Below, piece by piece: positions 3,334 through 57,726 of a DNA stretch of 64,000 nt (the first letter of the stretch is position 1; each line of letters begins with the position of its first letter). The notes below the pieces were generated by a model. It had not been told where the DNA came from. It ran no database searches and was given only the letters and a program-made list of their open reading frames with translations. The translations under genes were made by a program, and so were the position numbers. The stretch lies in contig CANQQQ010000001.1 of NCBI GenBank assembly GCA_947626025.1, positions 57,020 through 121,019 on the forward strand, given 5' to 3'. Source of the DNA: an uncultured Clostridia bacterium (lineage in GTDB: Bacteria; Bacillota; Clostridia; TANB77; CAG-508).

Positions 3334-3371
3334 AATTCGTTCTCCTTATAATTTGAATTACATTTTACAAT

Positions 3372-5311: not shown

Positions 5312-5338
5312 TGTTTTCCTCCTATTTGTTATATTATA

Positions 5339-5878: not shown

Positions 5879-5892
5879 TATTATCCTCCTAT

Positions 5893-6837
5893 TTATTTTT
5901 CTTTATTTACTATGTCGACAATCTTTTGCATTTCACTATATCCATACCTTTGATCACATGGTAATGGTAAAATATTAACAGCGTAATTATATGCTAATGT
6001 GTCTTTATTCTCTTCTATTACATTTGGCCATAAAATTGGTACATAAATTTTATTTTTTATTAATATTTCTCTTATATGGCGTGCATCATCTAAATACAAT
6101 GGATATGTATATGCACCTTCAATATTCTCTAATTTCAAATTATTTATTTGTTTTAGCTCATTATTCAAGTATTTAAAATTTTCTGTTCTTATTTGTTTTA
6201 CTTTTTCATAATCAATACCACTTAAAATTAGTCTAGTAGATTTAGACATTTTCCTTATTGGTAATTTTTCTAGTAATTGTTCGTTGTCTCTATAATCACT
6301 ATAATAATCTTCTGCGTTCTTTTCAGTTCTTCCAAAAATATGTTTAAATCTATCTTTTGAATAGTCTTCATCTAGTTCTTCTTTTAAAATATTATTTGTA
6401 TATAAATATGCTCCGTCTGGAACTCCAAAAAATTTTCGGCAAGAGTAAATTGTATCTATATCTTTGACAGGTTTTTGAAAGAAGGCTTGAACATTATCTA
6501 TTATAATATTTTTATATTTTTCTCTTAACTGAATTATTGTACTATTTGAAAGTATTCCAAAATAATTAACTATGTAAATATATTCATTTTTTTCTAGTTT
6601 TTTTTCAAAAGCTGGTAAGAAATTATTACTAATCGCATAATATTCTATTTCACAATAAGATGATGCTTTATTGACAGAGTCACATAAGTAATATGGAATG
6701 TATATTTTTTTTATTTTTTTACTTCTAATAATATAAATAAGACAGTTTCTAGCAGTATTAAGAGCTATAGCATTGTCATGATATACAGAATTATAAAATC
6801 CACTTAATTCAAAATATCCCCCAATTTCTTTTACCAT
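5893..6837 (-). CDS. hypothetical protein, possibly a divergent DegT-like PLP enzyme
   Basis: 314 aa; the segment DIDTIYSCRKFFGVPDGAYL resembles the D-x3-FSFHxxK-x-x-x-x-EGG lysine region of DegT enzymes, but the protein is shorter than typical DegT aminotransferases (about 370 aa). Weak call. Confidence 0.3.
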   Translation of the reverse strand: MVKEIGGYFELSGFYNSVYHDNAIALNTARNCLIYIIRSKKIKKIYIPYYLCDSVNKASSYCEIEYYAISNNFLPAFEKKLEKNEYIYIVNYFGILSNSTIIQLREKYKNIIIDNVQAFFQKPVKDIDTIYSCRKFFGVPDGAYLYTNNILKEELDEDYSKDRFKHIFGRTEKNAEDYYSDYRDNEQLLEKLPIRKMSKSTRLILSGIDYEKVKQIRTENFKYLNNELKQINNLKLENIEGAYTYPLYLDDARHIREILIKNKIYVPILWPNVIEENKDTLAYNYAVNILPLPCDQRYGYSEMQKIVDIVNKEK

Positions 6838-6849
6838 TATAAACTCCTT

Positions 6850-8049
6850 TTATTTTACTATTACTTTTATATATGTACTTTGATTTTCTAAAACTTTTTG
6901 CATTTCATCATCATTATTAAATTTTAAAACAAGTGTACCTATGGCTTCATTTGCACCAGAAAATCCTCCAATTTCTTTTCCTTGTTGTATCCATAAATCT
7001 TTTTCGACTATATTATTTTCTAATTCTTTAGAAATCCATAAAGCATCAAATATTCCAGTTTTATTGCTATGAAGTATTATTTCTGCCCAATATCCATCAG
7101 TTTCGCTTGGCACTATTTCCTCGATTTTTTCACCTAACGCAGATTTTATAGAATTAGTTATTAAATCAACTCCTGCACAATATTTCATCATTTCTGCTAA
7201 TCTATTTCCTCCGCCACGTGGCGAACACTCCATAATATATGCTTTTCCATTGTTACATTCTCTTGTTTCTATATTGTATATGGATGTTTTCATATTAAGT
7301 AATTTTAATAATCTTTGAATTTCATTTTTAAGTTCTAATTGGTGTTCTTTTGAAATTGTTGCTGGCCAACTAAAAGATGCTGGTGTATATGGATTATCAC
7401 AAGTTTCATCAAATCTCTGCGCTGAAAAGGATACAAATTTTAATTCTCCATCAATCGAGAAACTCTCACAATCAGATGAATGTCCTTTCTTTTCTAAGAA
7501 ATCTTCAATTATAAATTCATTAGAATTTGAATATGATAATGCATAATTTATGCTTTCTCTAAGCTCATCTGGGTTATCTACTCTCTTTACTCCTTTACTT
7601 CCTGCTGAGTCTGTAGGTTTTACAATTACTGGCCAATGAAACATATCTATATCCTTTAATGCATCTTCTACGTTTTTATAGCCTTTTGCTGTTGGAACAT
7701 TAAAATTGTTTTCTGTTAAAAATTTACGAAACTTTGCCTTGTTTTGTAGAATACTTACAGATTGATAAGATCCACTGCTTGGCAAATTTAATTTTTCTGC
7801 CACATATGCTGCTGTCTCAACTCCTGGATCACAAGCAAAAGACATTATTCCATCTATTTTTAGTTTTTTAGCTACATTTAATACTGCTTCTTTATCTATT
7901 ATGCTAACATTGCAATATTCATCTGAATATTTGTGTGCTATATTGTCTGGTAAATAATCGCATGTTATAACATATATTCCCATTTCATGTGCTTTTTTTA
8001 TTACAGGAATTAAATATCTCATTCCTCCTAATAACATTAATTTTTTCAT
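6850..8049 (-). CDS. ATP-grasp domain protein (carboxylate-amine ligase) within the polysaccharide locus
   Basis: 399 aa; the N-terminal pre-ATP-grasp region (MKKLMLLGG...IKKAHEMGIYVITCD), a central KPTDSAGSKGV-type ATP-binding segment and a C-terminal glutamate-rich catalytic region are typical of ATP-grasp ligases. Confidence 0.65.
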   Translation of the reverse strand: MKKLMLLGGMRYLIPVIKKAHEMGIYVITCDYLPDNIAHKYSDEYCNVSIIDKEAVLNVAKKLKIDGIMSFACDPGVETAAYVAEKLNLPSSGSYQSVSILQNKAKFRKFLTENNFNVPTAKGYKNVEDALKDIDMFHWPVIVKPTDSAGSKGVKRVDNPDELRESINYALSYSNSNEFIIEDFLEKKGHSSDCESFSIDGELKFVSFSAQRFDETCDNPYTPASFSWPATISKEHQLELKNEIQRLLKLLNMKTSIYNIETRECNNGKAYIMECSPRGGGNRLAEMMKYCAGVDLITNSIKSALGEKIEEIVPSETDGYWAEIILHSNKTGIFDALWISKELENNIVEKDLWIQQGKEIGGFSGANEAIGTLVLKFNNDDEMQKVLENQSTYIKVIVK

Positions 8050-8073
8050 AATATATTTTTTCTCCTTGATATT

Positions 8074-9558
8074 TTATTCTGTTTTATCTACGGCTATATT
8101 TCTTAATTTACTTTTTATTGAATTAATAAGATATGTAAATGATTCAAATTTAAATACATATGCTAATCCGATATATACAACTGCACCTACTCCAACTTGA
8201 AGTATTAAATATAACAATAATTTTATAGGTGACAATGATGCTATATTTATAATTTTTCCCATTATAAAAACAATAGCTCCCATTACTAGTGATATAGAAA
8301 ATGCAGGTAATATATCTTTAAATTGTTCTTTTAATGTATAGTTCAGTAATTTCTTATTTGGATAAGCATTTATAAATATTGAAATTATAGATGTTATTAT
8401 TTTCATAATAGCCATTACAGTTACACCAAATGGACAACTAATTAATAGTGCTACTATTCCTACTACTTTTTTTATTACCTCCAATTTTAGATATATGTCA
8501 CTTCTACCCATTGCACTTATTGCTTGAAGATTTACTGTATGTATAGGCCAAAAAATATATGAAAAGCATAATAGTTGCATTAATGGAACTGCTTGTAACC
8601 ATTTGTCTGTTAAAACTAATATTACAAATACTTCAGCTACTGCAGCTAGTCCAACCATCATAGGAAAAAGTATAAAAGAACTTAGCTTCATTGATCTTGA
8701 CATCATTCTTTTCACTTTTTCTTTATCTTCCTGCTCATTTGATAATGCTGGTAACATTACAGATGAAATTGATCCATTTATATTTTCCGCTACAATACTA
8801 GGAAATTGATTTCCTTTATTGTAATATGCCAAAGATTCTGAATTATATATTTTCCCTATAACAAGTTCGTATAGTTCATTATATATTCTATCTAATAGTG
8901 CTGAACATAACATTTTCCATCCAAATTTAAATAATTTCTTTAATCTCTCAATTGAAAATGCCCATATCGGTCTCCACTTTACTGTAATCCATAGCATTAA
9001 GGTATCAACTGTTGTGTTAAATAATTGTTGTGTTACTAATGCCCACACTCCATAGCCATGGTACGCCATCCATATTCCAACAAAAGCAGATCCTATTGTA
9101 CCTACTGATGTTGATATAAAAAATTTTTTAAATATCATTTTTCTCGATACGTATGCGTTTTGTACGCTTTTTAATCCAGCTATAAGTATTGAAATTCCTA
9201 GTACTCTTATTAGTGCTGTTAGTTCTGGTATTTCATAGAATTTTGCAATTAACGGTGAAGTAAAAAATATTATTATATAAAGAATAGTTGATATTAGTAT
9301 GTTGCAGTAAAAAACTGATGAGAAATCTAAATCATCTGCATCTTTTTTCTGTATTAGCGCTGTTGACAGTCCATTTTCAATAAAAACATTGCATATTGCT
9401 ATAAAAATTGTTATCAAAGCAACTGCTCCATAATCTTCTGGTGCTAAAATTCTTGCTAAGACAATTGATACTATTAAATTTACTCCTTGTGCTCCTATTC
9501 TTTCAGCAAACTTCCAGAATAATGAAGACATTATTTTACTTTTTGAGTCTTTTTCCAT
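8074..9558 (-). CDS. wzx: Wzx-type polysaccharide flippase (MOP superfamily)
   Basis: 494 aa polytopic membrane protein; the N-terminus LFWKFAERIGAQGVNLIVSIVLARIL is typical of the Polysacc_synt/Wzx family. Confidence 0.8.
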   Translation of the reverse strand: MEKDSKSKIMSSLFWKFAERIGAQGVNLIVSIVLARILAPEDYGAVALITIFIAICNVFIENGLSTALIQKKDADDLDFSSVFYCNILISTILYIIIFFTSPLIAKFYEIPELTALIRVLGISILIAGLKSVQNAYVSRKMIFKKFFISTSVGTIGSAFVGIWMAYHGYGVWALVTQQLFNTTVDTLMLWITVKWRPIWAFSIERLKKLFKFGWKMLCSALLDRIYNELYELVIGKIYNSESLAYYNKGNQFPSIVAENINGSISSVMLPALSNEQEDKEKVKRMMSRSMKLSSFILFPMMVGLAAVAEVFVILVLTDKWLQAVPLMQLLCFSYIFWPIHTVNLQAISAMGRSDIYLKLEVIKKVVGIVALLISCPFGVTVMAIMKIITSIISIFINAYPNKKLLNYTLKEQFKDILPAFSISLVMGAIVFIMGKIINIASLSPIKLLLYLILQVGVGAVVYIGLAYVFKFESFTYLINSIKSKLRNIAVDKTE

Positions 9559-24594: not shown

Positions 24595-24845
24595 AAATAC
24601 CCCCACATTAGCCGTACTTTCAAGAAATTTTATGGACCTGTTATACACAGGTGGGTGTCTACCTTAATACTCATGGGTTTCTTACTATTTTAATGACAGA
24701 ATTTTGCTTTAAAATTCTTCAAGAAAGTGCAAGCATACACGCCATATCAAGAGCTCGACTCCCGTATCCATTACTTTGTAGGTTCTAAAATTTCTGTCTC
24801 ATAAGCGCACTACGCAGGGATATTTTTATTCTCTCTTTACTTAAA
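24595..24845. other. ORF-free, GC-enriched (about 42% vs about 25% background) 250-bp segment in a 550-bp intergenic region; candidate structured RNA or foreign-DNA remnant
   Basis: No ORF of at least 60 codons on either strand; local GC spike; several short stem candidates (CCTGTTATACACAGG). No match to the consensus of any RNA family checked, including T-box, TPP and SRP (full list in findings). Confidence 0.25.
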
Positions 24846-36193: not shown

Positions 36194-37435
36194 TTATTCA
36201 ATTGTGTTGTTTATCTCTGGTCCAATCAATGTGCAACATCTGTCTCTTTCTGCTATAGCTAATTTGTACATTGATTCTGACCATACTCCTTCAGCATTTT
36301 CATAGCTCTCGATGATTTCATTTAAATCTAATAGCTCGTACCTATCTTTTGCACCTGCCTCCTTTATATTTACATATATAGGTACATAGGTAACACTCTC
36401 TACTGTTACTTCACCAGTTACCCCATTTTCTTTAACTGCAATATTGAAAATTGCTGTATTTCCCGTATTTATCTTTTTTTGATTTGAAAAGAAATTTCCC
36501 TGTGAAAATATCACTAGTCCCTCTTTTTCTTCTCCTTCTTCATTCACAACTTTCAACATTTTCATTGGCTGTAACACGTGTGGGTGACACCCTAGGACAA
36601 TTTTTACATCATTCTCAATTAAAAACTCTGCAAGTCTATCTTGTTCTGCATTTTCTGTAGTTTGATACTCTACACCCCAATGCATTGAGGCTACAATAAG
36701 TTCTGCACCTTGTGCTTTCGCTTGCTCAATTTGACTTAGTATAAATTCTTCATCTATTAAATTCACACAAAATTCTTTACCTGAAGGAAGAGGAATCCCA
36801 TTTGTTCCATAGGTAAAAGCAAGAAAAGCCGTTCGTATACCATTTAAGTCTTTAATCAAAATGGTATCCTGTTCCTCTGTATCCCGTGCAGTTCCAACAT
36901 GCTCAATTCCTGCATCATCTAAAAAATCCAATGTAGATGACAAGCCACTAAAACCTTTGTCTAAGCAATGATTATTTGCTGTCGTCATCACATCTACACC
37001 TAGTTCTTTTAGATCTATCGCTAAATGTTCAGGTGCATTAAAAGTAGGATAACCACTATATCCTCTTTCTTCTCCTGCCATAGGCGATTCAGCATTTCCT
37101 ATACTTATTGTAGCATCTTTAAAGTATTCCTCCACATATTTGAACATATAAGAGAAATCATAACTGCCTGTTTCTTTGTCATAAGCTGCTTTGAATAGTG
37201 GTTCATGACAAAGTGTATCACCAAATGATAGGATTGTTGCAAAGGAATCTTTTGGTATTAATTCTGGTATTTCAACCTTATCAAGAATTGACTCTAATGT
37301 CATTGTCCGTTGAGTTAAAACACTTTCTTTTGCACATTGTAAAACATTCACCTGTCCTACGTTCTCTGGTAACTTGCCTGTGCACCCTATAAATAGTGTT
37401 GCACTAATTGCAAATAGCATTGATAGTTTCTTCAT
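36194..37435 (-). CDS. CapA/PGA_cap family metallophosphoesterase-like lipoprotein (poly-gamma-glutamate-capsule-type protein)
   Basis: 413 aa; lipoprotein signal MKKLSMLFAISATLFIGC; CapA-family motifs (GNHxLD, HWGVEY). Local GC is visibly higher than in the neighbours. Confidence 0.75.
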   Translation of the reverse strand: MKKLSMLFAISATLFIGCTGKLPENVGQVNVLQCAKESVLTQRTMTLESILDKVEIPELIPKDSFATILSFGDTLCHEPLFKAAYDKETGSYDFSYMFKYVEEYFKDATISIGNAESPMAGEERGYSGYPTFNAPEHLAIDLKELGVDVMTTANNHCLDKGFSGLSSTLDFLDDAGIEHVGTARDTEEQDTILIKDLNGIRTAFLAFTYGTNGIPLPSGKEFCVNLIDEEFILSQIEQAKAQGAELIVASMHWGVEYQTTENAEQDRLAEFLIENDVKIVLGCHPHVLQPMKMLKVVNEEGEEKEGLVIFSQGNFFSNQKKINTGNTAIFNIAVKENGVTGEVTVESVTYVPIYVNIKEAGAKDRYELLDLNEIIESYENAEGVWSESMYKLAIAERDRCCTLIGPEINNTIE

Positions 37436-41688: not shown

Positions 41689-42528
41689 TTTTTATCCCTC
41701 CAATTTTTTCTATTACATTGAATAAATTTTCTAATTTTCTCTGTTTTCGCATGTCTACTCTTGAATACTTTTCCATTTCATATTTTTTCTTTGCAGATTT
41801 ATTCCTTCTTAATTTCATAACCGCTTCTTCCTTTTATGTCTTTTAATTCTACCTTATTCATCTTAATTACGTTCCTTTTAGAATAATTATAAATTTTATA
41901 TATTTTTAAACTTAGTTTTATTTAGAAAAAATCGATATACTACAAAAAGACTATTTATAGTAATTTTTCTTCCTACAAATAGCCTTTTTAGTATATCTAT
42001 TCTTAATACTTTTAAACTATCGTAGGCAAAGCAATTTTAGCCTGTACCTACGCTACTTTTAGCAATAGTTACAAGCTCCTACAATGATGATGTAATTGGT
42101 TTAAAAATATTTTAAAATTCATAATTATTCCTCTTTTTATATAATATATGTTAGCATAATTTTTTATATACGTCAAGTATAGAGTATACTAACATTGCAT
42201 AAACTTTTTGTGGGAAACACCATTTTTGATATTTACCCATACATTATCTTACTTAGTATTTTTCTTATATTGCTATGCATTCCAGTTTTTTCAATTTCAA
42301 ATGTATATGTTTTTGTTTCTTCAACACCTATTTTTATATTTCTTGCTATTACTTTATCATAAGTTTAAAAAATTATCAATATTTTTTAAAAGTATATATC
42401 TGTTTATAAATGGTAATTATTGTATATAAAAAGCATAATTTAATTGAAAATATCAACTTTTTGTGATATTATTTTATAAAATATTAGAATTAAAAATTTT
42501 ACTACATAAACCAAAGGAGATATCAAAT

Positions 42529-43533
42529 ATGGAAGACAAACAAAATAAAAATGAATTTATAGATAAAATGTTAGAAAAATCACAAGAAGCTTTTTTATTG
42601 GCAATAGAAATATATAATAAACCAACTATAAAATATAGACTAGAAGGGTTTGCATTCTTCATTTGTAATGCTTGGGAGCTTTTACTAAAATCATATATAT
42701 TAAATAATAATGATATGGATAGTTTATACTTCAAAAATAAACCTGACAGAACTATTGGACTTTCAGATTGTATAAAAAAAGTATTCACAAATGAAAAAGA
42801 TCCAACTAGAAAAAATCTAGAAATAATTGCTGACTTAAGGAATACATCAACACATTTTATTATAAAAGAAATGGAGAATTTATATTTACCATTTTTACAA
42901 GCAAATACATTAAATTATTCTCAAAAATTGTTTGACTTTTTTGGATTAGACATAACCAAAAATATAGATACTTCATTTTTATCATTAGTAACAAATAATG
43001 CTAGTTTGAATGATAATGAAATATTAAGTACATATGGAGACCAAATATTTAATAATTATAAAAAATTAAGACAGGAAACAACCAGTTTATTAGAAAATGA
43101 AAATAATAATAAACTAGCAATAAATATTAATTTAAACTTAAGGGTGGTAAAAAATGCCAAAGATGCACAACTTACATTTGCAGTTGCAAATAATGCAGAA
43201 GATGCTGTATATATAGTTGACAAAATAAAAGATATAAATACTACATTTCCATATTCTCAAAAAAATGCTAGAGAAATAATAATGAAAAATTTAAAAAGAA
43301 AAGACATTGAAATAGATTTACATCAAGCGAATTTTAAATTAATATGTAATAAATATAATTTAAAGCAAAATGAAACTTATTTCTATCATCATAATTTAAC
43401 AAATAGATATATGTGTTCACAAAATCTAATAAACTTTGTAACAGATTTATTAACACAAAATTCTAATCTAATAGAGGAAATAAAGCTAGAAAACAAAAAA
43501 ATAGAGTTAACCCCAGGGGCAAAGGATTCTTGA
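42529..43533 (+). CDS. hypothetical protein with HEPN-type R-x4-H motif (candidate abortive-infection/toxin RNase)
   Basis: 334 aa from the ATG at 42529 with an AAAGGAGA RBS; the track ORF starts further upstream. An N-terminal helical region about 100 residues long ends in LRNTSTHF, a canonical HEPN R-N-x-x-x-H catalytic signature. No other domain recognised. Confidence 0.4.
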   Translation: MEDKQNKNEFIDKMLEKSQEAFLLAIEIYNKPTIKYRLEGFAFFICNAWELLLKSYILNNNDMDSLYFKNKPDRTIGLSDCIKKVFTNEKDPTRKNLEIIADLRNTSTHFIIKEMENLYLPFLQANTLNYSQKLFDFFGLDITKNIDTSFLSLVTNNASLNDNEILSTYGDQIFNNYKKLRQETTSLLENENNNKLAININLNLRVVKNAKDAQLTFAVANNAEDAVYIVDKIKDINTTFPYSQKNAREIIMKNLKRKDIEIDLHQANFKLICNKYNLKQNETYFYHHNLTNRYMCSQNLINFVTDLLTQNSNLIEEIKLENKKIELTPGAKDS

Positions 43534-43890
43534 TATACAAATGTATATCTACTCCCATTCGGGAACCCAGCCTTTTTCCTTCACAAGTTAACTCTTATTA
43601 AATATATTATACAATTTTTATTGAAATATTGCAAGAAATTTCTGGAAATTGTAAAAAACTTTTAATTGTTTTGTAATATCTTTGTAACAATTTGTATTCT
43701 AATTTTATTACTCTATAAAAAAAATTGCTTTATTATTAATTTAATATGTAAAAATATTTATTAAAAAAAGGACTTTAGTAGACAAAGGGACATAAGCTTT
43801 TGTCTCAGGTTTTTGCTCTCCTAATTTTATTATCTGCTGTTAGCTAAAAACAACTTACAAAACTTTTTTTAGTTCGTAAGTTGTCTTAAA

Positions 43891-43920
43891 TTGGAGCGAT
43901 TACGAAACGGGTATGCGAAA
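43891..43920. repeat. degenerate copy of the tRNA-Gly 3' end (possible att-site remnant)
   Basis: TTGGAGCG...GGGTATGCGAAAA here versus TTGGAGCGGGTAGCGAGAA at the tRNA 3' end (50195-50213): an 8/8 match, a 10-nt insertion, then about 11/13 matches. Confidence 0.3.
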
Positions 43921-44021
43921 AATATGTGTGTAATGTAATTGCTCTTTTTATATAATTCGATTTATTGTTTTTACTTTAACATAAGATTTACATTTTTTCA
44001 AGTAATTTAGTGAAAAATTTT

Positions 44022-44066
44022 TTAAATGCAAAAATGTTGCTTTTGCAACAGATTTTTGCATTTAAA
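44022..44066. promoter_or_regulatory. near-perfect inverted repeat upstream of the 124-aa gene (candidate operator)
   Basis: AAATGCAAAAATGTTGC-TTT-GCAACAGATTTTTGCATTT, with a GTTGC/GCAAC core like the palindromes near 47.7 kb. Confidence 0.35.
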
Positions 44067-44265
44067 TATGATATATATATAATAATAATATTTAAATTAT
44101 TGGAGGTTTTTAAAGGACTAAAAAACAAAAATATTTAATTTTAAATTATTATAAATGGAATATGTATAGCAGATAGCAAATTTTATTATATACATACAAA
44201 TACAAAATTTAATTTATTAGGAGGAATCGATTAGGAATAATTATAATAATAAACAAAGTAAGAAA

Positions 44266-44640
44266 TTGCAATATATAGGCAAATTGAATAAAAAGGTTAT
44301 TGGCGAATATGGAGATAAATTGACTACATATGATGTGGTGTTAACAGATGAAAGAAAGTTACACATATTAAATAAACACAAAAATGATTATGAGATTATA
44401 CTTAATAATATAAATAATACTGTTTTAAATCCACAGGAAGTGATAGAAGATTATAAAAATGTAGATACACTGTTCTTTTTAAGCAATTTAGAAAATAATA
44501 ATTTAAATGTTGTTGTAAAATTGAATACACTTAATGATAACAAACATCCTCAAAATTCAGTAATGACTGCTTGGATAATTAGAAATAGCAATCTGATAAA
44601 ATTACGAGGAAAAAACAAAACTATTTACAAAAAAGAATAA
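44266..44640 (+). CDS. hypothetical protein (124 aa)
   Basis: TTG start in the ORF track with no SD; the frame is open from 44221, and GGAGG at 44220-44224 could serve an ATT start at 44230. N/K-rich; no motif recognised. Confidence 0.3.
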   Translation: MQYIGKLNKKVIGEYGDKLTTYDVVLTDERKLHILNKHKNDYEIILNNINNTVLNPQEVIEDYKNVDTLFFLSNLENNNLNVVVKLNTLNDNKHPQNSVMTAWIIRNSNLIKLRGKNKTIYKKE

Positions 44641-45019
44641 AAATGTTATAATTAAAGTACAATATAAGTAGTTATTTGAAGTAGAGATTGTGCTGCTACA
44701 CACCTAATATTAGGTCAAAAGAAATGTTGGATAGGGCACACCAACCAAATAACAAACGCATAGAAGTCGTGGAAACACGACTTCTTAATTATATATAAAT
44801 TCTGCATAAAATTGAAATAATTACTAAAAAAGATTCCAAAATAAGCATATTATAATTATTCTTTTATTTTAAGATTTGATAATAAATATTTGATAGTTAT
44901 AGAATAATTAAGAAATTTGCTTTTTTATGTAAAATACTGTATAATTTAAATATGAGCGTAGTAACTCATATTTGTAACTAATGGCACTAAAAATTAAACA
45001 ATTATAAGGAGGACTTACT

Positions 45020-45361
45020 ATGAAAGTAGAAGATTTATTTGTGCCTACGGACAAATGCCCATTAGATTTCTTAGCTGAAATGGGAGAACGGATTAAGGGT
45101 GCGTGGATCCTTTTTGATGACACTGTTGTCACTAATTTGAAACAAAGTGATGGTGTAATTATCAAAAATCACGGATTTGGCGGAAAGGAGCTTATTTGGG
45201 AAGCAACAGAGGACTATCCTGAAACAATGATTATATATGATAGTTTCTATGGCACAGGATGGTATGTCCTTTATGAAGTAGAAGCCGATGATATCGCTTA
45301 TACATCTGTTAGCTCCGTTCGAGAACCCAACACAATTATCCGTTTGAAAATGGCACCATAA
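45020..45361 (+). CDS. hypothetical protein (113 aa), GC-atypical
   Basis: Strong RBS TAAGGAGGAC 6 nt upstream of the ATG; about 39% GC against about 25% background; followed by a strong terminator. Confidence 0.45.
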   Translation: MKVEDLFVPTDKCPLDFLAEMGERIKGAWILFDDTVVTNLKQSDGVIIKNHGFGGKELIWEATEDYPETMIIYDSFYGTGWYVLYEVEADDIAYTSVSSVREPNTIIRLKMAP

Positions 45362-45378
45362 AAAATTTGTCTGAATAG

Positions 45379-45416
45379 AGTGGAGTAAGATACAATTACA
45401 TCTTACTCCACTTTTA
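45379..45416 (+). terminator. rho-independent terminator
   Basis: AGTGGAGTAAGAT-N7-ATCTTACTCCACT followed by TTTTAACC. Confidence 0.7.
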
Positions 45417-45553
45417 ACCTTTATTTAGACATTATACAAATTCAAATTTCAAAAAGCACAGTGATATTGAAAATTTAACGATAATATAGTATAATATTAT
45501 TGAGAGCAATATGCTTTAAGAGTTTTATAAAAAATTTTTTTCGGAGGTGTACC

Positions 45554-45727
45554 TATGAAAAAATGGACACAATGGTTTGACTCACCATCTGAACGGAGAG
45601 CTTATATAAAAGCTCAACGTAAAAAAGCAAAAACAGAAGGAAAGAAACTCTGTGTTCTGAAACGTTCTTATTGCATACAGCGTTGTTCTAAAAAGGTGAT
45701 GTACTTCGCTGATCTTGCTATAAGATG
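45554..45727 (+). CDS. small basic protein (57 aa)
   Basis: GGAGG RBS 8 nt upstream of the ATG; K/R-rich (MKKWTQWFDSPSERRAYIKAQRKKAKTEGKK...); followed by a 12-bp-stem terminator. Below the 60-aa cutoff of the ORF track. Confidence 0.35.
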
Positions 45728-45736
45728 AAATTTCAT

Positions 45737-45780
45737 AACAAAGTGGCTTATCTATAATGGATTAGCCACTTTGTTATTTT
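45737..45780. terminator. bidirectional terminator between the convergent 57-aa and 96-aa genes
   Basis: AACAAAGTGGCT-N15-AGCCACTTTGTT then ATTTT. Confidence 0.6.
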
Positions 45781-45800
45781 AAGAAAAAATACATTATGCT

Positions 45801-46091
45801 TTAAATATTAAACAAATACAATGCCACTTGATTTTGTTCTTCTTTTGTCATTTCCATAATTTTAGCCATTGCAAACATTATAAGATGATATTTAGCAAAA
45901 TTTATTAAGGTAGTTCTATATTCCTCATCAACTTCTTTTAACATTTTATCAAATTTTGCATACATTTTAGGTTTATCATATTTTAGATTAGTATAACTAC
46001 TATTGCTCATACATATTGCTAATCTTAATTTATCTTTTATATTCATATCGTTTATCATATCTATCAAATATCTTACTTTTTCACTTTCCAT
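45801..46091 (-). CDS. hypothetical protein (96 aa) immediately downstream of the relaxase
   Basis: ORF with protein-like composition; 18-nt gap to the relaxase stop suggests co-transcription. Confidence 0.35.
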   Translation of the reverse strand: MESEKVRYLIDMINDMNIKDKLRLAICMSNSSYTNLKYDKPKMYAKFDKMLKEVDEEYRTTLINFAKYHLIMFAMAKIMEMTKEEQNQVALYLFNI

Positions 46092-46109
46092 ATTCCAATT
46101 ACCTCCATA

Positions 46110-47501
46110 TTAAAATCTTGTATCATTGTTTTTCTTTCTGTTATTTTCAATTTGTTTTTCATTTGGTATAGTTACTTTTCTATAAATATTGTTAGCAATT
46201 TCATTATCATTGTCATCAAATATACCATTTTTATAAAGGTCGTTACTTACGATTTTATAATTTTCATCTTTGTCATAACAAATTCTTTTGTGAAAATGGC
46301 TCATAATATTATGCCAAAAGCCTTTAAATTTCTGTAATTCTTGCTTTATTTTTTCCTTTTCAGTTTGTAACTTATTTATAATTTTATCTTTTGTAGATAG
46401 TTCACCTTTTAGATTATTTATTTCATCATCTTTCAACTCTAATTGATATTTAAGTGAACGATTTTCTTTTTCTATTTCAAATGTAGAATGTTCAAAATCT
46501 TTAATTGCCATATTTAAGTCATTTACACTTCTAACTGTTTCAGTTATATCTTTTACATCTTTTGTATATTTTTTTATTTTCTGTACATCCTCGTTTGAAA
46601 TAAGCATATTGTTTTTGTTTAGCTTAGCAGATTTTAAATTATCTAATATTTCATTTATATTTTTACTTGTATCATCAAGTTTTTTTGTTTGATTATTAGC
46701 CTCAAATAGTTTTTGTTCTTTCTTTTCTTGTTGTTTTTTTATTTGTCTATAATCTCCCATATCTTTAATATTTATATCTTGATTTCTTCCTTTTTTCTTC
46801 TGTTTTAATAAAGAATGTTCTGAATAAACTTTATTATATGATTTTATGCAACAAGCTCTCATTTCATCTTGTAATTTTGTTAGAGTTTCTTTTGTAAACA
46901 CTTTTGATTTAGCAGGTTGCTTTTTCATTCCTTTTTTGTAGTCATCTTTTATTGGTACACCAACTAAATGTAAATGTGGAGAGATTTCATCAAAATGTAT
47001 TACTGCATTAGCAATTTTAAACTCTGGTATTATTTTCATTAAATCTTCTATTTGTTCTTTATATACATCTACCATTCCTAATCTATAACTTGTATCTTTA
47101 TCATTCCAAAAATCCATATCTCCAAGTTCAATTATAAACTCACAAGCTAAATCTTTTTGTTTATCTTTTGATATATGCTTAAAATAATCTTGTATTTTCC
47201 TATTATCACGGCTTTGCTTTGCATTATATTCGATTCTTGCTTGTTCAAATTCTTGTAAATACAAGTTTTGAACATCTTTATATAAATTATCTGTTCCATA
47301 AATAATACAAATATTTTCTCTATCATTATCATAATCTCTTAAATTGTGTTTATTTACTTTTGAAAGTTGAGTTGAATTTTGTATTCCATTATTTGAAAAT
47401 GATGTTGTTTCTGATGGATTATTCTTTGCAATCTCTTTTGCTTTTGTTGTTTTATTTTTATCACTACCTAAGTGAATAGAATATGCTAATTCTTCGCTCA
47501 T
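46110..47501 (-). CDS. MobV-family (Mob_Pre) conjugative mobilization relaxase
   Basis: AVIHFDEISPHLHLVGVPI matches the MobV motif III HxDE...PHxH; K/E-rich coiled-coil C-terminus as in MobM. Start set at MSEELAYSIH (GGGAGG RBS); the track ORF is 11 codons longer. Confidence 0.8.
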   Translation of the reverse strand: MSEELAYSIHLGSDKNKTTKAKEIAKNNPSETTSFSNNGIQNSTQLSKVNKHNLRDYDNDRENICIIYGTDNLYKDVQNLYLQEFEQARIEYNAKQSRDNRKIQDYFKHISKDKQKDLACEFIIELGDMDFWNDKDTSYRLGMVDVYKEQIEDLMKIIPEFKIANAVIHFDEISPHLHLVGVPIKDDYKKGMKKQPAKSKVFTKETLTKLQDEMRACCIKSYNKVYSEHSLLKQKKKGRNQDINIKDMGDYRQIKKQQEKKEQKLFEANNQTKKLDDTSKNINEILDNLKSAKLNKNNMLISNEDVQKIKKYTKDVKDITETVRSVNDLNMAIKDFEHSTFEIEKENRSLKYQLELKDDEINNLKGELSTKDKIINKLQTEKEKIKQELQKFKGFWHNIMSHFHKRICYDKDENYKIVSNDLYKNGIFDDNDNEIANNIYRKVTIPNEKQIENNRKKNNDTRF

Positions 47502-47753
47502 CTTTTTCCTCCCTTTGACATTGCTTCGAAGCATAGGAATTTGACCTTGGTCAATATTCCTAACCCCCTATGAGTTTTGACCTCTTATCAAAACTCGGGG
47601 GCTCTGCGAGGCAATAAATTTTTTCCCAAATGGGATAAAATTTATTCAAATTAACTCGGTACAAAATTTACATTTGCTTATTGCAAATACAAATTTGTCC
47701 TCGCTAATTTGTTGTTGCAACATAGGCAATATATGAAGTAATAGTTGCAACAA
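47502..47753 (-). promoter_or_regulatory. candidate oriT/promoter region upstream of the relaxase gene
   Basis: Several inverted repeats: GAGTTTT-N11-AAAACTC, GC-rich CTCGGGGGCTCTGCGAG, and two GTTGCAAC palindromes 32 bp apart. MobV oriTs characteristically lie just upstream of mob. Confidence 0.35.
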
Positions 47754-49618
<1,865 letters not shown>

Positions 49619-49736
49619 TTACTACCTCCAAAAAACAATAAAGTGCTAGAAAGCTTTTTTGCTAACTAACACTTTAAACTAACTTTATTATTTAATTGTT
49701 ATACTACTTGCTGAAAAATAAAGAAAACTTCTAGTA

Positions 49737-50009
49737 TTAGTTACCATTGATAAAATCTCTTAATTTTGAGAGTGGATATTTATTTGCTAAGTTACCTATG
49801 TAAAAATATTCGTGTTCATTAAAAAATAAATATAACTTATTTTTTATGAATACTTTATGTGGCTCTACATAAGCAATATTAGTTTTTTCTATCATTCTCA
49901 AATTACCATTCTTTATCTTTGGTACACAATTACTAAAAGTGCAAGCCCATTCAATTTTAGAATGTAATTCTTTATTTATTGTTATTTCTCTTTTTACTGT
50001 AGATATCAT
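49737..50009 (-). CDS. hypothetical protein (90 aa) between the tRNA and the recombinase
   Basis: Start set at MISTVKRE, which has AGGAGG 10 nt upstream; the track ORF begins 8 codons earlier without an RBS. Confidence 0.4.
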   Translation of the reverse strand: MISTVKREITINKELHSKIEWACTFSNCVPKIKNGNLRMIEKTNIAYVEPHKVFIKNKLYLFFNEHEYFYIGNLANKYPLSKLRDFINGN

Positions 50010-50194
50010 ATCACAAAAACCTCCTTTTTTCAATATTTTGAGGCTATTTTTTACATTCAGTATTGTAAAATACTGTAAAATGTAAAAAAATAAGCCGACT
50101 AAATCGACTTATATATTGTGAAATGATATTCACTTTTGTTTTCTTCAAACTTGCTTATATCAATAATTACAAGTAGTTCGACGAAAACGCATTT

Positions 50195-50268
<74 letters not shown>

Positions 50269-50337
50269 ATATTTACAACTATTATTATACATTATTCAAT
50301 AATATTTTGCAATGGTATCTTATTTCAAATACATTAA

Positions 50338-50392
50338 ATAGGAGAGTTGAGATATATACTTTTTATACTCAAAATTTCTCTCCTATTTATTA
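50338..50392 (-). terminator. long imperfect hairpin terminating the three-gene export cluster
   Basis: AATAGGAGAG ... CTCTCCTATT with a nested TTGAG/CTCAA pair, directly after the stop of the 357-aa gene. Confidence 0.5.
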
Positions 50393-50395
50393 TTT

Positions 50396-51469
50396 CTATC
50401 TTAATTTATCTGCTGTTACTGTATATATATAGACATAATTATCAAGAATTACATATAATTTGCTTTTCTTATCTTTATCAACTTCATAATGAATTATATT
50501 ACTGTTATTTTGTTCTGCTAAATCAATTAAATCTTCTAATAAATCCACATTCATAATGTTTAGCTTTTCTATATTGGGTTCATTGGTTATAGTAACAATT
50601 AAGTCCCTATAATATCTCATAATACGTTTTATATTGCTTTCATATAAATTTTTATGGTCTTCTTTATTTTTTCTTATTTTTATAATAGTAATTATTACAG
50701 CAGTTATTATAAATAATCCACCTAATATGCAACATATAATATAAATAATCTTAATATTGTTATTTTGCATAAAGATATCCTTAGTCGTATTTTTTTCATA
50801 GTTTTCTGTAACCTCTGTTACTGTATTTGTTATAGGAATGTCTAGTTCTATATAATCTTCAACTTTTTCTTTATTATCAATTCCTAATTTTAAATAATTA
50901 ATATTATAATTAATATTTAAGCGCAATTTTAAAACTGAATTAATCGTTATTCCATAAGTTTTCTCATAAGTACGTGCTAATTCATTATAATACTCATAGT
51001 CAACATTTATCTCTTCATCTACTAAGAACTCGTCTTTGTTGCTTTGATTATTATTTTTATTCTCAAGTAATATAAAGTTTCTATTCCATATTTGTTTTTC
51101 TTGATTATCGTTATCTATTACCGTACCAATTAGATTAGCAGTAACATTGTAATTATAATCAATATCTACCTTATTATTTCCTTTAAATCTATAGTTAAAA
51201 TTAATTATATAATCATTAATTGATTTAGAAGCATAATATCCGCCAGATGGAAGTATCTCGCTTTCATACAAGCTATTCGGTTTTAGTAGGACTTCATAAT
51301 TATCATTTCTCTCTATTGTATAACTATATATTGGTATTCCATTTTGTGAAAAATCCATACCAAATTTTATAAGCATCCCTCCAATTATAAACATTAGCAT
51401 TATTAAAATAATAATATAATCTATCTTTATATTGTGTTTAATTGTACCCCTATATCTGCTTCTACTCAT
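50396..51469 (-). CDS. bitopic/double-pass membrane protein with an N/Y-rich extracytoplasmic domain (accessory protein of the SipW-like cluster)
   Basis: 357 aa; TM at about 20-40 and about 235-260 with a beta-rich, N/Y-rich domain between; 13-nt gap to the upstream gene. Confidence 0.4.
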   Translation of the reverse strand: MSRSRYRGTIKHNIKIDYIIILIMLMFIIGGMLIKFGMDFSQNGIPIYSYTIERNDNYEVLLKPNSLYESEILPSGGYYASKSINDYIINFNYRFKGNNKVDIDYNYNVTANLIGTVIDNDNQEKQIWNRNFILLENKNNNQSNKDEFLVDEEINVDYEYYNELARTYEKTYGITINSVLKLRLNINYNINYLKLGIDNKEKVEDYIELDIPITNTVTEVTENYEKNTTKDIFMQNNNIKIIYIICCILGGLFIITAVIITIIKIRKNKEDHKNLYESNIKRIMRYYRDLIVTITNEPNIEKLNIMNVDLLEDLIDLAEQNNSNIIHYEVDKDKKSKLYVILDNYVYIYTVTADKLR

Positions 51470-51481
51470 ACTGTTACCTCC

Positions 51482-52660
51482 TCACTTTGTTTCAACTTTT
51501 GTCACACTATTATTAAAATAGTCATATAACCAGATTGACGGATACCCGATATATTTAATATGAAACACATATATTCCTTTAATCTGCTCTAATTGTACTA
51601 AATCCATATCTGGTCCATTATTATAATCTCCCTTTGTTTTATATAATACATTTCCATTTTCTTTTATTATTTTTATAACTCTATGTGCAATATTCTGTTC
51701 ACCTATACTATAAATAATAATAGCATTTAGCGGAATATTTTCTAATTCACTATTACTTAACTTCTTATAAATAACCACATCTCCTCTAGTAAATGCTGGG
51801 TACATGCTATTGGATAATATGGAAATTGGCTCATAATTGAATATTCCTAACATAAAGCATATCAATGTTATACATAGAATTATAGTAACTGTATAAACTA
51901 TTTTTGTATATAAATTTTCTTTCTTTTTCCTTAAATTTTTTTCTTGCCTAGTAAAGTTATATTTAAATAATATATACATTAATGTAGGTGATAATATATT
52001 TATTGTTCCAATTATAAACCAGTCTACATCAGGTAAAATTGGCAGTAACAGTATTGATAATCTGTTGAAAATTCTATATATTAATGGTAGTAAGTATGAA
52101 ACTTTTAATGTGAAATACGTATATAGTATATTACATGCTATTAAGGGTAGTATAGTTGAGCAAATATATTCAAATAAACTTTGTCTATTTGAATATATAC
52201 TTATTAATATATTATATTTAATTTCTACTACTATTAATATTATTGTTAAAAATACTATCAACTTTTTGTTATTTCGATTTCTGCTTATTATTACTATTCT
52301 TGTCAGTTCAATACCAACTATTGGTATTATTTCTATAATTATATTTTGTAAAATAGATATTATATCGTGGTTATATGGACTTTTTACAAATCCTCTAATA
52401 AAACCTATATTGAAAGTAATTATCATCTGTAAAATTAATATTATAATCATATATATATAATATTGCTTATTTTTAAAAAACCTTATATAACCTTTTTTTA
52501 TATCAAATGTTAGATAAGTTACAATTATAGCCCAAAATAGTGTATTTAATACGTTTATATAAAAAGAAACGTTTTGAATGCTAATTTTTATCGTTATAAA
52601 TACATATATGATTATAATTATCAATAACTCCTTGTCCTTCAAATGTCTCATAGTCCTCAC
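51482..52660 (-). CDS. signal peptidase I (SipW/Sec11-like, S26B) fused to an N-terminal polytopic membrane domain
   Basis: The C-terminal 130 aa contain ISILSNSMYPAFTRGD (Ser box), NIAHRVIK (His box; His where the classical bacterial type has Lys) and KGDYNNGPD (GDNN box). The N-terminal 260 aa or so hold about 8 TM helices. Confidence 0.55.
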   Translation of the reverse strand: MRTMRHLKDKELLIIIIIYVFITIKISIQNVSFYINVLNTLFWAIIVTYLTFDIKKGYIRFFKNKQYYIYMIIILILQMIITFNIGFIRGFVKSPYNHDIISILQNIIIEIIPIVGIELTRIVIISRNRNNKKLIVFLTIILIVVEIKYNILISIYSNRQSLFEYICSTILPLIACNILYTYFTLKVSYLLPLIYRIFNRLSILLLPILPDVDWFIIGTINILSPTLMYILFKYNFTRQEKNLRKKKENLYTKIVYTVTIILCITLICFMLGIFNYEPISILSNSMYPAFTRGDVVIYKKLSNSELENIPLNAIIIYSIGEQNIAHRVIKIIKENGNVLYKTKGDYNNGPDMDLVQLEQIKGIYVFHIKYIGYPSIWLYDYFNNSVTKVETK

Positions 52661-52733
52661 CTAGTTTTGATTTCATTATACCTTCGTTACTTTATAAATA
52701 ATAGATTTCACTCTCTATTATCATATCATTTAA

Positions 52734-53225
52734 TTATTTTTGTACATATTCTATAATTCCTGTTATTGTCTTTGTTTTAACTTCAGGCACTTCAGTACAA
52801 TTTTCATCATATTGCACTTTCAGCAAAAAGTATGTTTGTTCTCCAGCTGGTAATAAAGTATTTGGTTCAGAAGTTGTGTAATTAATTGCTGGTGACCCAT
52901 TTGCATCTGGTGTAAATTTAAAATTCTCTAGAGTTGCATCAAATGTTCCTGTATTTTCAATTATTATTAGATAGGTAATATAATCACCTGGTTTTACCAA
53001 CTTTGCATTAAGTGTCACAGTTGTGTTTGTAAATTGTGGTTCTCCTGGACTGCAATTTTCACTAGCATACTGAGCTGTTACGCTAGTTATCTTTATATTC
53101 CAGTTTCCCACGATTTCAGCTGTACCATTTAATGTTAACTGCGTAGCAAATGCTGAATATCCTACAGCCATTATTAATATTACTATTAATAATGTGCCAA
53201 TTATAATATTTTTATTGTTTTTCAT
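52734..53225 (-). CDS. small secreted protein with a SipW-cognate-type signal peptide (TasA/camelysin-like substrate candidate)
   Basis: 163 aa; N-terminus MKNNKNIIIGTLLIVILIMAVGYSAFATQLTL: basic, then hydrophobic, then G-x-S-A-F, resembling the TasA/CalY-class signal A-(F/Y)-F-S-D; beta-rich T/N-rich mature part. Confidence 0.4.
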   Translation of the reverse strand: MKNNKNIIIGTLLIVILIMAVGYSAFATQLTLNGTAEIVGNWNIKITSVTAQYASENCSPGEPQFTNTTVTLNAKLVKPGDYITYLIIIENTGTFDATLENFKFTPDANGSPAINYTTSEPNTLLPAGEQTYFLLKVQYDENCTEVPEVKTKTITGIIEYVQK

Positions 53226-53382: not shown

Positions 53383-53410
53383 AAAAATAGAGCGGTTTTT
53401 GACCGCCCTT
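53383..53410 (-). terminator. rho-independent terminator of the aminopeptidase gene
   Basis: GGGCGGTCAAAAACCGCTC hairpin followed by TATTTTTAT on the minus strand. Confidence 0.65.
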
Positions 53411-56115: not shown

Positions 56116-57726
56116 TTATGTTTCTGTTCCTAGTCCTGCATTTGGGTCTGTATATGTTTCTCCTCCTGATTGCTCCTCTGTTTGTGTTTCTGTGTATTGT
56201 TGTGTTTGTGTATTTGTTTGTGTCTGTGGTTGAGTTTCTGTTTGCGCTGGAGTTTGTAACTGTTCTTCTGTTTCGTCTTCTGTTTTTTTAGTTAATCCTA
56301 TCGGTTTAAAAATATCCTCTTCTAAATTATATATAACTCCATGGAATTCCATATAGTATGATTTTACTCCAGCATCTGTTATTGAATACATATCTTCTGC
56401 TTCTGGTCTAAATAGTTCTGTTGCAGAAGTATCTATTAATCCATATTGTTCATTTTGTTCAACTACAATTAGTTCATAATCATCTATTAATAATAGATTT
56501 CCGGTTGTTTTTATCTTTGTTGGTTTTTCTTCTTCATTTTGATTATCTTCATCTTCTTCAATAACTTCAACTTTACAACCTATATCTGTATATTTTATGT
56601 CAGATACTTTATTACCTTTTATATTAAAGAACCCCCACATATCATTTTGTTTAACTGCTATAAGTGAATTAAAGAATACATACTGTTTAACTATATCTTT
56701 TTCATCTTCTTCCTCATTGTTCGTAGTTTCTGTTCTATTAATTTTTTGTGTAAGGTATGGCGTTATATCAACTCCTATATCATCATATTCCATATGTATG
56801 ATGATTCTCTCTTTTCCATCTATTACTCCATATTTTTCATTGCTTTTTACTAAATATAGTTCATTTTGTTTATTTATACTTTTTATTTCATCATAATTTA
56901 CATTAATTTTTGTTTCTCCATCAATATAGTCTATTCCTACTTTATTATAAGCATTTGTTATTGTAAATTCCTTATTATATTCATCAAATTGTACATAAGC
57001 GTATCTTGTTCCTATGACCTCTACGCCGTTAGCATCAACAACTCCATATCTTCCATCTGAATTTTCTATTACTATTCTATCATATAATAATGCTTTTTGG
57101 TTTTCAAAATTGTCACTTGCTTTTGTAAATCCCAATTTTTGTACTGCTGTATTATATAGTTCATATATATAAGGTAAAGTTTGTATACTCATAATATTAT
57201 TGACAGAATCATATTGTAATTTTATGTTACATGCAATTTCAATTCCGTCTGATATAACATATATATCACCATTTACATTTCTTGCTGGTTCAGACATTGT
57301 ATAGTTCTTATAATCATCACCTGTATTTGGTTCTATTTTACTAATTATTGTTGAATTTAAAAACATAGATGCAGTTTCTTGCTTATTCTCAACAAATACT
57401 TTGTTTGTATCTTCAGCTTCTATCTTATATTCTCCACTGTGAGATTCATACCCTACATAACTTGCTATTCCTTTTACGCTAACATATACCTTATCATTTT
57501 CTATTAGGAATATAGATGTATCCATCTGTGCCTTTTCACCATCTAAATATATTTTCATTGTTTGATCTATAGGTTGTAGTTCATTTATCATAACAATTAT
57601 TGCACAAATAATAATTGTAATGATTATTATAGCTGATACTATAGCAATAATGGTATTATTACGTCCTTTTGGCTTATTTACTTTTAATTTACTATTTTCC
57701 TTTAATTCATCTGCATCTAGTCGCAT
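56116..57726 (-). CDS. membrane-anchored WG-repeat (WG_beta_rep-like) protein with a C-terminal T/Q-rich low-complexity tail
   Basis: N-terminal TM; at least four repeats of the form (K/R)YGVIDxxGxxVIxxxYDDI (GRYGVVDANG, EKYGVIDGKE, DMWGFFNIKG, EQYGLIDTSA); tail PAQTETQPQTQTNTQTQQYTETQTEEQ encoded by TGTTTG/TGTGTT-rich repetitive DNA. Confidence 0.5.
   Translation of the reverse strand: MRLDADELKENSKLKVNKPKGRNNTIIAIVSAIIIITIIICAIIVMINELQPIDQTMKIYLDGEKAQMDTSIFLIENDKVYVSVKGIASYVGYESHSGEYKIEAEDTNKVFVENKQETASMFLNSTIISKIEPNTGDDYKNYTMSEPARNVNGDIYVISDGIEIACNIKLQYDSVNNIMSIQTLPYIYELYNTAVQKLGFTKASDNFENQKALLYDRIVIENSDGRYGVVDANGVEVIGTRYAYVQFDEYNKEFTITNAYNKVGIDYIDGETKINVNYDEIKSINKQNELYLVKSNEKYGVIDGKERIIIHMEYDDIGVDITPYLTQKINRTETTNNEEEDEKDIVKQYVFFNSLIAVKQNDMWGFFNIKGNKVSDIKYTDIGCKVEVIEEDEDNQNEEEKPTKIKTTGNLLLIDDYELIVVEQNEQYGLIDTSATELFRPEAEDMYSITDAGVKSYYMEFHGVIYNLEEDIFKPIGLTKKTEDETEEQLQTPAQTETQPQTQTNTQTQQYTETQTEEQSGGETYTDPNAGLGTET

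Follow-up and report, generated by a model that had tools for sequence, protein, structure and literature searches.

What does a three-gene cluster beside a transfer RNA (tRNA) gene do in an uncultured Clostridia bacterium (lineage TANB77; CAG-508), and why should the signal peptidase encoded in its middle carry a membrane domain of eight helices? The cluster lies in a stretch of 64,000 nucleotides (nt) of contig CANQQQ010000001.1 (assembly GCA_947626025.1, positions 57,020-121,019), which we call the window and whose own numbering is used below. A reading made from the sequence alone (hereafter the sequence-only reading) had taken the cluster for an export system of the TasA/SipW kind, made up of a substrate, a dedicated S26B signal peptidase and an accessory protein. 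The analysis described here supports that view and extends it: the operon probably encodes a minimal machine for making an extracellular fibre of the AbpX/TasA type, with a dedicated signal peptidase fused to a domain of CPBP-like fold, and we put the probability of this reading at roughly 0.6. TasA-like fibres, which form by donor-strand complementation, have come to be seen as a foundation of biofilm matrices in more than one domain of life, and the field still asks how they assemble with neither chaperone nor usher and why a signal peptidase of their own should be required.

The three tightly spaced open reading frames (ORFs) all lie on the minus strand, and each was confirmed where the sequence-only reading had placed it: a 163-residue protein is encoded at 52734-53225 behind the ribosome-binding site AAGGGG, the peptidase fusion at 51482-52660, and a 357-residue membrane protein at 50396-51469. 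The only correction concerns the start of the fusion. Read from the GTG at 52660 it has 392 residues; since this GTG falls within the Shine-Dalgarno sequence GGTGAGG, translation likely starts at the ATG at 52651, giving 389 residues, the version used by the public gene calls. Residue numbers of the peptidase given below count from the GTG, and three should be subtracted for the ATG start. Because a terminator search found none between the three genes, and hairpins only at both flanks of the cluster, we conclude that they form a single operon. Its 5′ boundary is marked by a terminator-like hairpin on the minus strand at 53389-53409 (an 8-bp stem with five G-C pairs, then a T-run), where the transcript of the upstream M18 aminopeptidase gene ends. 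At the other end, a hairpin with a U-rich tail just past the last stop codon (50335-50389, minus strand; -20.3 kcal/mol, z -5.3 against 200 shuffles) is the probable operon terminator, and a tRNA-Gly(TCC) gene follows just downstream at 50195-50268. A promoter scan of the cluster was uninformative in such AT-rich DNA, with 36 sites found and 34.9 expected.

These genes are far from peculiar to one genome. Full-length homologues of the fusion peptidase number at least 120, with 46-66% identity and none of them named, and the 163-residue protein has 190, of which the 120 listed measure 145-173 residues (nearly all 161-165) at 57-85% identity. Scanning one genome per species, we found relatives of the fusion protein encoded in 189 genomes, nearly all of them metagenome-assembled genomes from rabbit gut that carry the label uncultured Clostridia or Bacilli. 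The order of the three genes is kept in 76-79 of 82 loci examined, the exceptions lying mostly at contig ends, and the third gene, which encodes a DUF5305 protein, adjoins the peptidase gene in 76 of them, as it also does in a distant locus taken up below. The genes that flank the cluster in the window, ychF and the M18 aminopeptidase gene, are common to merely 4-5 of the 82. Since gene order is conserved while the flanks differ, the trio travels as a module, and across these loci and genomes the divergence of all three proteins roughly tracks.

The 163-residue protein appears to be a compact, divergent member of the AbpX branch of the TasA superfamily, a placement that we base on profile-profile matches, on a bridging pilin and on sub-threshold matches to the TasA family itself. 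Compared by hhalign, its family and that of AbpX match over 147 columns, a stretch reaching from the signal peptide as far as the C-terminus, with 90.0% probability (E 1.7e-6). The AbpX sequence came from the supplement of the preprint that describes it; a search seeded with it returned only five close Pyrodictium-type sequences, and the resulting AbpX profile is shallow (number of effective sequences, Neff, 1.6). A bacterial AbpX-like pilin from the distant locus L085 bridges the two families, matching the 163-residue family at 94.6% and the AbpX profile at 94.4%. This pilin (signature G-F-A↓S-W-T-D, the arrow marking the cleavage point) is one of two S-W-x-D pilins of the locus (2726-8941), the other reading G-Y-A↓S-W-N-D, and around them stand genes for a HisKA_3 kinase, a GerE response regulator, a polytopic peptidase 29% identical to ours and a DUF5305 protein. 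At another distant locus, L086 (139-2932), the polytopic peptidase adjoins a GGDEF diguanylate cyclase, and both loci match the neighbourhoods of bacterial abpX genes in the preprint. Peptidase_M73 (PF12389), the Pfam family of TasA and camelysin, gives sub-threshold matches in 13 of 28 family members (best E 5.9e-4) and none at E ≤ 1 for the window protein; AbpX itself is also sub-threshold for this family, reaching 18.6 bits where 22.5 are required. The mature protein is acidic, with a computed isoelectric point of 4.42 (family median 4.34; AbpX 4.05). Two other kinds of pilin were considered and rejected: the protein has no G↓F/M-T-L-x-E motif or Glu at +5 and the system no prepilin peptidase, as a type IV pilin would require, and it lacks the C-terminal LPXTG motif and transmembrane (TM) segment that a sortase-assembled one would have. 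A motif scan of the window yielded no substrate other than the 163-residue protein.

The signal peptide is predicted to span residues 1-24 (53154-53225, minus strand), with the n-region MKNNKN, an h-region from I7 to V21 and the c-region G-Y-S. Alignment with AbpX, whose counterpart reads T-Y-A↓Q-W, sets the predicted cut after S24, in A-V-G-Y-S↓A-F-A-T-Q-L-T-L. Around this site the family hardly varies: in all 120 homologues P3 is Gly or Ala, P2 is Tyr and P1 is Ser, Ala or Thr, and P2′ (position +2) is Phe in 104, being otherwise Leu or Ile. AbpX, too, is aromatic at both P2 and P2′. In TasA, the Trp at P2 and the Phe at P2′ are reported to hinder cleavage by the LepB-type peptidase (PMC10269814). 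As the aromatic P2 and P2′ residues here match this poorly cleaved signature, they would explain the need for a dedicated peptidase of the Sec11 type, and they bear out the SipW-cognate-like signal peptide that had been read from the sequence.

What the cut would expose is a candidate donor strand, residues 25-42 (AFATQLTLNGTAEIVGNW; 53100-53153, minus strand), which aligns with the AbpX strand W2-I12. In the AlphaFold model of the monomer, the signal peptide forms a helix (residues 2-22), the stretch from about 22 to 42 has no assigned structure, and a six-to-seven-stranded sandwich resembling an immunoglobulin (Ig) domain fills residues 44-162, so that the first modelled strand runs from residue 44 on; residues 22-34 have a model confidence (predicted local distance difference test, pLDDT) below 50. 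This unstructured segment is among the best-conserved parts of the family, with the consensus Y-S-A-F-A-T-Q-L-x-L-N-G-T-A-E-I-x-G-E-W. If the cut falls after S24, positions +2, +6 and +8 hold conserved hydrophobic residues (Phe, Leu and Leu/Ile/Val), and those in between are small or polar.

A second gene bearing the same motif, absent from the window, occurs in 19 of 80 related loci (for example L006:5109-5996, L010:5070-5996 and L077:4986-5921), usually between the pilin and peptidase genes. The encoded proteins, 15 of the 19 full-length at 291-313 residues, have only their first 35-50 residues in common with the pilin, that is, a signal peptide and strand reading x-N-G-Y-S↓I-L-x-T-x-L-N-I-x-G. 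A processing-and-insertion module placed on an otherwise unrelated protein is what would be expected of a tip or minor subunit, and the protein at L077, which matches the cellulose-binding-type family CBM_2 (36.4 bits, cut-off 24), could serve as a tip adhesin that binds plant fibre.

The second gene of the operon supplies the peptidase. Its C-terminal part (51482-51925, minus strand) comprises an anchor helix (residues 249-270) and a catalytic domain of signal peptidase I of the Sec11/SipW type (S26B). Over residues 252-376 the fusion reaches 78.8 bits with NCBIfam TIGR02228, the model of the archaeal/eukaryotic-type signal peptidase I (cut-off 51.85), and the best solved relatives of the domain are human SEC11A/C (E 2e-8). 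S285, H326, D345 and D351 align opposite a Ser, a His and two Asp of SEC11A, the catalytic residues of that enzyme, with His and not Lys as the general base. None of the four varies among 26 close relatives or 38 distant ones, the latter at 25-46% identity, so that the Ser/His peptidase assigned by the sequence-only reading survives the alignment that could have refuted it. The fusion scores only 67.6 bits against NF046067, the NCBIfam equivalog model for Bacillus SipW (cut-off 190), and the enzyme resembles SipW in type without being its orthologue. Topology prediction gives nine spans with positive-inside loops, the basic loop RKKKEN ahead of the anchor helix, a cytoplasmic N-terminus and the peptidase domain outside. 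The protein ends in a short, presumably extracellular tail, x-V-E-T-(G/K) (residues 384-392 or so; window 51482-51520), which recurs in many members down to 25% identity, is absent from the enzyme of P. abyssi and has a pLDDT below 50 in the model.

Ahead of the anchor helix stands the domain that sets this peptidase apart from SipW (51926-52651, minus strand). An AlphaFold model of the fusion (pLDDT 79.7) shows eight helices within residues 10-241, followed by the anchor helix and the beta-rich peptidase domain, and in this model the N-terminal domain (N-domain) has the eight-helix fold of CPBP/Rce1 proteins; in fold searches of PDB libraries its closest structural match was SpdC. Among the folds put forward for checking at the outset (exosortase/archaeosortase, CPBP, rhomboid), CPBP is thus the one found. 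Across sequences of 25-46% identity only N106, E118, R121, P207 and P210 of the N-domain are invariant. The pair E118-x-x-R121 sits in the fourth helix, at the site of CPBP motif 1 (E-E-x-x-x-R), and is often preceded by Glu or Gln, with a spacing one residue shorter. Over 38 sequences, residues 1-245 hold no invariant or near-invariant His: helix 7 reads Y-R-x-x-x-x-L, and neither the H-x-x-x-N motif of CPBP helix 7 nor the F-x-x-x-H of helix 5 is present in the alignment. PMC11980579 sets out the catalytic residues of CPBP enzymes and calls the helix-7 His/Asn motif critical; the N-domain thus has the CPBP fold and is probably not a CPBP protease.

In a search of 1.84 billion cluster representatives, a profile made from the N-domain by itself matched 1,116 proteins at E ≤ 1e-3, 602 of them at E ≤ 1e-10. 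The best 150 of the 1,116 matches include 107 full-length proteins, every one of which carries the peptidase motif; for this reason, and because the representatives are so many, the fusion is obligate and widespread, not a rarity. The architecture that the sequence-only reading had called unusual therefore stands in its form, a polytopic domain of eight helices, and falls in its rarity; it had moreover already appeared in the AbpX preprint of January 2026, where the peptidase next to abpX is said, in bacteria and archaea, to have "ten transmembrane helices" (bioRxiv 10.64898/2026.01.04.697558).

The third gene had been described as coding for a double-pass membrane protein with an outer domain rich in Asn and Tyr, and it does: two hydrophobic spans (residues 12-40 and 237-266) enclose an outer domain whose residues are 17% Asn and 9.5% Tyr, whereas 27 other long ORFs of the window average 6.6% and 5.2%; beyond the second span comes a C-terminal domain in the cytoplasm. 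We identify it as a member of Pfam DUF5305 (PF17231), which it matches over profile positions 1-217 of 217 with 67.1 bits (cut-off 29, E 2e-18). DUF5305 is the TafG of haloarchaeal Tat-fimbriae, encoded beside the dedicated peptidase TafD (PMC11821415; PMC12337348), and it figures as a putative accessory subunit of the signal peptidase in AbpX loci (bioRxiv 10.64898/2026.01.04.697558). By analogy we propose the same role here; in all three of these sources it is likewise proposed and not demonstrated.

Taken together, the three proteins suggest how such a fibre might be made. The 163-residue protein would be exported by Sec through its 24-residue signal peptide. The Sec11/SipW-type domain would then cut after G-Y-S and expose A-F-A-T-Q-L-T-L-N-G-T-A-E-I, at a site whose Tyr and Phe the general peptidase would handle poorly. 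The freed strand may next enter the still incomplete Ig-like sandwich of the subunit beside it, as homology to AbpX suggests, and so build a polymer without a chaperone. The peptidase, its CPBP-fold domain and the DUF5305 protein would sit together as a membrane complex, to judge by fold and conservation, and the CPBP-fold domain most likely serves as a non-proteolytic dock that receives the conserved signal-anchor helix and places it for cleavage and hand-over. Docking of this sort has analogues in SpdC, which holds the TM helix of SagB, and in APH-1 of gamma-secretase. A bolder version, which we offer tentatively, is that these parts make up a prokaryotic signal peptidase complex dedicated to one substrate, in which a degenerate intramembrane-protease fold has been reused as a signal-anchor receptor, cleavage and the passing on of the donor strand are physically coupled at the foot of the growing fibre, and the peptidase is itself the assembly platform. 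If that were so, more than 1,000 unnamed CPBP-signal peptidase fusions in Bacillota and Archaea would be fibre-assembly machines, and a CPBP fold would be scaffolding another membrane protease for the second time, APH-1 in gamma-secretase being the first.

The main rival keeps the fibre and changes the role of the N-domain, making it an active intramembrane glutamic protease, with E118 catalytic, that acts as a built-in signal-peptide peptidase, degrading or releasing the cleaved signal peptide, or makes a second cut in the substrate. We consider this unlikely. In its favour, E118 and R121 remain invariant at 25-46% identity and occupy the fourth helix like the catalytic Glu of CPBP enzymes, some of which, such as myxosortase, sort surface proteins (PMC11980579), and the signal peptide is unusually conserved, as a sequence-specific partner in the membrane would lead one to expect. 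Against it, SpdC, the closest structural match, is a partner of SagB and is not known to act as a protease, the helix-7 motif falls away with the invariant His, the E-x-x-R pair is one residue off the E-E-x-x-x-R of the enzymes, and a Pfam CPBP match is lacking even at E ≤ 10.

Of the systems already known, the closest are the AbpX loci of Pyrodictium abyssi and their homologues in Bacillota and Chloroflexota. Like the operon described here, these combine a small acidic secreted subunit that has an N-terminal donor strand and an aromatic +2 residue, an adjacent dedicated peptidase of the TIGR02228 type (about 380-390 residues, with a polytopic N-domain) and a DUF5305 accessory gene; the subunits are related at profile level (90-95%), and hhalign joins our fusion family to the peptidase next to abpX of P. 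abyssi at 99.4% over 320 columns. They differ in that the mature subunit here has 139 residues instead of 163 and carries Thr or Ser at the acidic, Ca2+-coordinating position +4, that HMMER cannot join the two subunit families, and that bacterial abpX loci have kinases, cyclic di-GMP enzymes and LPXTG or SLH anchors where the operon here is a bare three-gene unit, in a low-GC uncultured gut bacterium. The tapA-sipW-tasA operon of Bacillus subtilis also sets a dedicated Sec11-like peptidase beside its subunit, and TasA polymerises by N-terminal donor-strand complementation and has aromatic residues at P2 and P2′ (W-A↓A-F in TasA, Y-S↓A-F here; PMC10269814). SipW, however, has about 190 residues and no eight-helix domain, and the enzyme here falls below the SipW equivalog model; the Bacillus operon lacks DUF5305, the operon here lacks a TapA homologue, and the subunit here is below the Peptidase_M73 cut-off.

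Haloarchaeal Tat-fimbriae (Tafi; TafA/TafE, TafD and TafG; PMC11821415, PMC12337348) share the trio of small pilin, dedicated signal peptidase I and DUF5305. Deletion of tafD stops processing of the pilin TafA and formation of the fibres (PMC11821415), which supports the role that we give to the peptidase. The differences are that Tafi pilins use twin-arginine (Tat) signals, that Tafi loci add regulator and tip genes, and that TafD has four TM segments, an N-terminal peptidase domain and an extra C-terminal domain in place of the N-terminal eight-helix bundle. From the CPBP/Abi proteins (Rce1, SpdC/LyrA, the myxosortase MrtX) and the APH-1 fold, the N-domain differs in having no PF02517 match, no His/Asn in helix 7, no His in helix 5 and a Glu-Arg spacing one residue shorter, and in always being fused to a signal peptidase I. 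The eukaryotic signal peptidase complex (SEC11 with SPC12, SPC25 and SPC22/23; PDB 7p2p, 7p2q) is alike in its catalytic subunits, SEC11A/C being the best solved relatives, and in setting a catalytic subunit amid extra TM helices and a partner with a lumenal or extracellular beta domain, an analogy that the AbpX preprint draws for DUF5305 (bioRxiv 10.64898/2026.01.04.697558). Here, in contrast, the extra helices are fused and of CPBP fold, no homology to SPC12, SPC25 or SPC22/23 was found, and the substrate range is apparently one pilin family.

Several observations weigh against the fibre reading. The case for donor-strand complementation rests on homology to AbpX and on an N-terminus that is unfolded and yet conserved, and the docking role of the N-domain is purely what we infer. 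HMMER returned only noise for the 163-residue family against the PDB (MarR, tricorn factor) and no AbpX, TasA, AbpA or other solved chain, though AbpX was in the library. The operon has no LPXTG or SLH cell-wall anchor and no TapA-like protein. A rival cleavage site, A-V-G↓Y, also satisfies the -3/-1 rule. As for the membrane domain, none of 38 diverse members matches Pfam CPBP (PF02517) even at E ≤ 10; the N-domain compared with that of P. abyssi by hhalign, using a narrow alignment, gives a non-significant 1.4%, and a broader hidden Markov model (HMM) of it only a weak 13-14 bits in hmmsearch. Homology to the archaeal N-domain is suggested by that weak HMM signal, by the common motifs G-x-E-x-x-R and P-x-x-P and by the common architecture. 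Finally, the acidic +4 residue that in AbpX mediates calcium-dependent strand complementation (bioRxiv 10.64898/2026.01.04.697558) is replaced in 118 of 120 homologues, by Thr in 109 and Ser in 9; with Thr in its place, any polymerisation here is probably calcium-independent.

Some of these points favour a weaker rival, in which the 163-residue protein is a monomeric or wall-associated surface protein like those of the CARDB/DUF11 kind and the cluster is its private route of export and maturation. Apart from Peptidase_M73, the weak Pfam matches of the family are to DUF7507, CARDB and DUF11, and the structural matches are to the adaptin ear and CEP192 domains, all generically Ig-like; that HMMER finds no pilin in the PDB, that the acidic +4 is absent and that the operon has no anchor or tip protein would fit equally. 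Such a protein, however, would hardly account for profile-profile links of 90-95% to AbpX and the bacterial AbpX-like pilin, for a conserved N-terminal strand that includes residues with a pLDDT below 50 in the monomer, or for the same N-terminal module on a second, unrelated protein in 19 of the 80 loci, as expected of subunits that co-polymerise, and the genetic context is like that of proven donor-strand fibres (Tafi, AbpX). We judge this rival improbable, more so than an active protease.

The kind of system is thus already described, by the AbpX preprint and, for archaeal relatives, by the Tafi papers, and the locus is a new, compact and divergent member of it from an uncultured gut lineage. 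The preprint does not mention CPBP, CAAX or Rce1, and the literature searched held no paper linking a SipW-type peptidase with a CPBP domain; nor did we find there the CPBP/Rce1 fold of the peptidase's membrane domain, its degenerate catalytic motifs or the size of the fusion family. These findings are worth reporting, as refinements of an existing picture that open no new one. They put a name and a probable role on over 1,000 unannotated protein clusters, and an Rce1/CPBP fold that has lost its catalytic His provides a concrete, mutable hypothesis for substrate-specific cleavage, possibly coupled to polymerisation. The locus shows the system at its barest, with a pilin, a peptidase and a DUF5305 protein, and does so in an extensive group of uncultured Clostridia from herbivore guts; the subunit with a cellulose-binding-type module that some relatives add hints that plant fibre is what they attach to.

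That the cluster is accessory cargo of a mobile element inserted at the tRNA gene, and not a trait of the lineage, is very improbable: the adjoining tRNA-Gly gene, the variable flanks and a Mob_Pre relaxase, a serine recombinase and a restriction-endonuclease-like gene within 8 kb would fit it, but the mobile genes all lie beyond the tRNA, on the side opposite the cluster, with the recombinase split into two ORFs, the cluster's GC content of 0.20-0.27 matches that of its neighbours, the nearest relative (L003) keeps the order ychF, M18, cluster, and the module is present in 189 species-level genomes with roughly parallel divergence of its proteins. The possible accessory status that the sequence-only reading had drawn from the nearness of the tRNA gene finds no support in these data, given an element that lies across the tRNA, a matched GC content and so many species.

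The region on the far side of the tRNA-Gly gene, 42463-50033, resembles an integrated mobilisable element. It runs from the restriction-endonuclease-like gene, with DUF3644 and EC042_2821 domains (42463-43533, plus strand), past a skipping-rope RNA (44671-44753, plus strand; Rfam RF02924, with a score of 59.1 bits where the gathering threshold is 36.7) to the relaxase gene (46110-47534, minus strand) and a large serine recombinase in two ORFs, with the Recombinase and Zn-ribbon domains at 47754-49049 and the Resolvase domain at 49235-49618. The split suggests a decayed, fixed element, and it is the same in an independent assembly (L001). Elsewhere in the window, a PGA_cap capsule-synthesis protein is encoded at 36194-37435 (minus strand) and a 536-residue protein with Cu_amine_oxidN1 and WG-repeat domains and a tail rich in Thr, Gln and Glu at 56116-57726 (minus strand), and we found no link between either gene and the cluster. 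A 6S/SsrS RNA gene (RF00013, 72.9 bits) lies at 24596-24823 on the minus strand.

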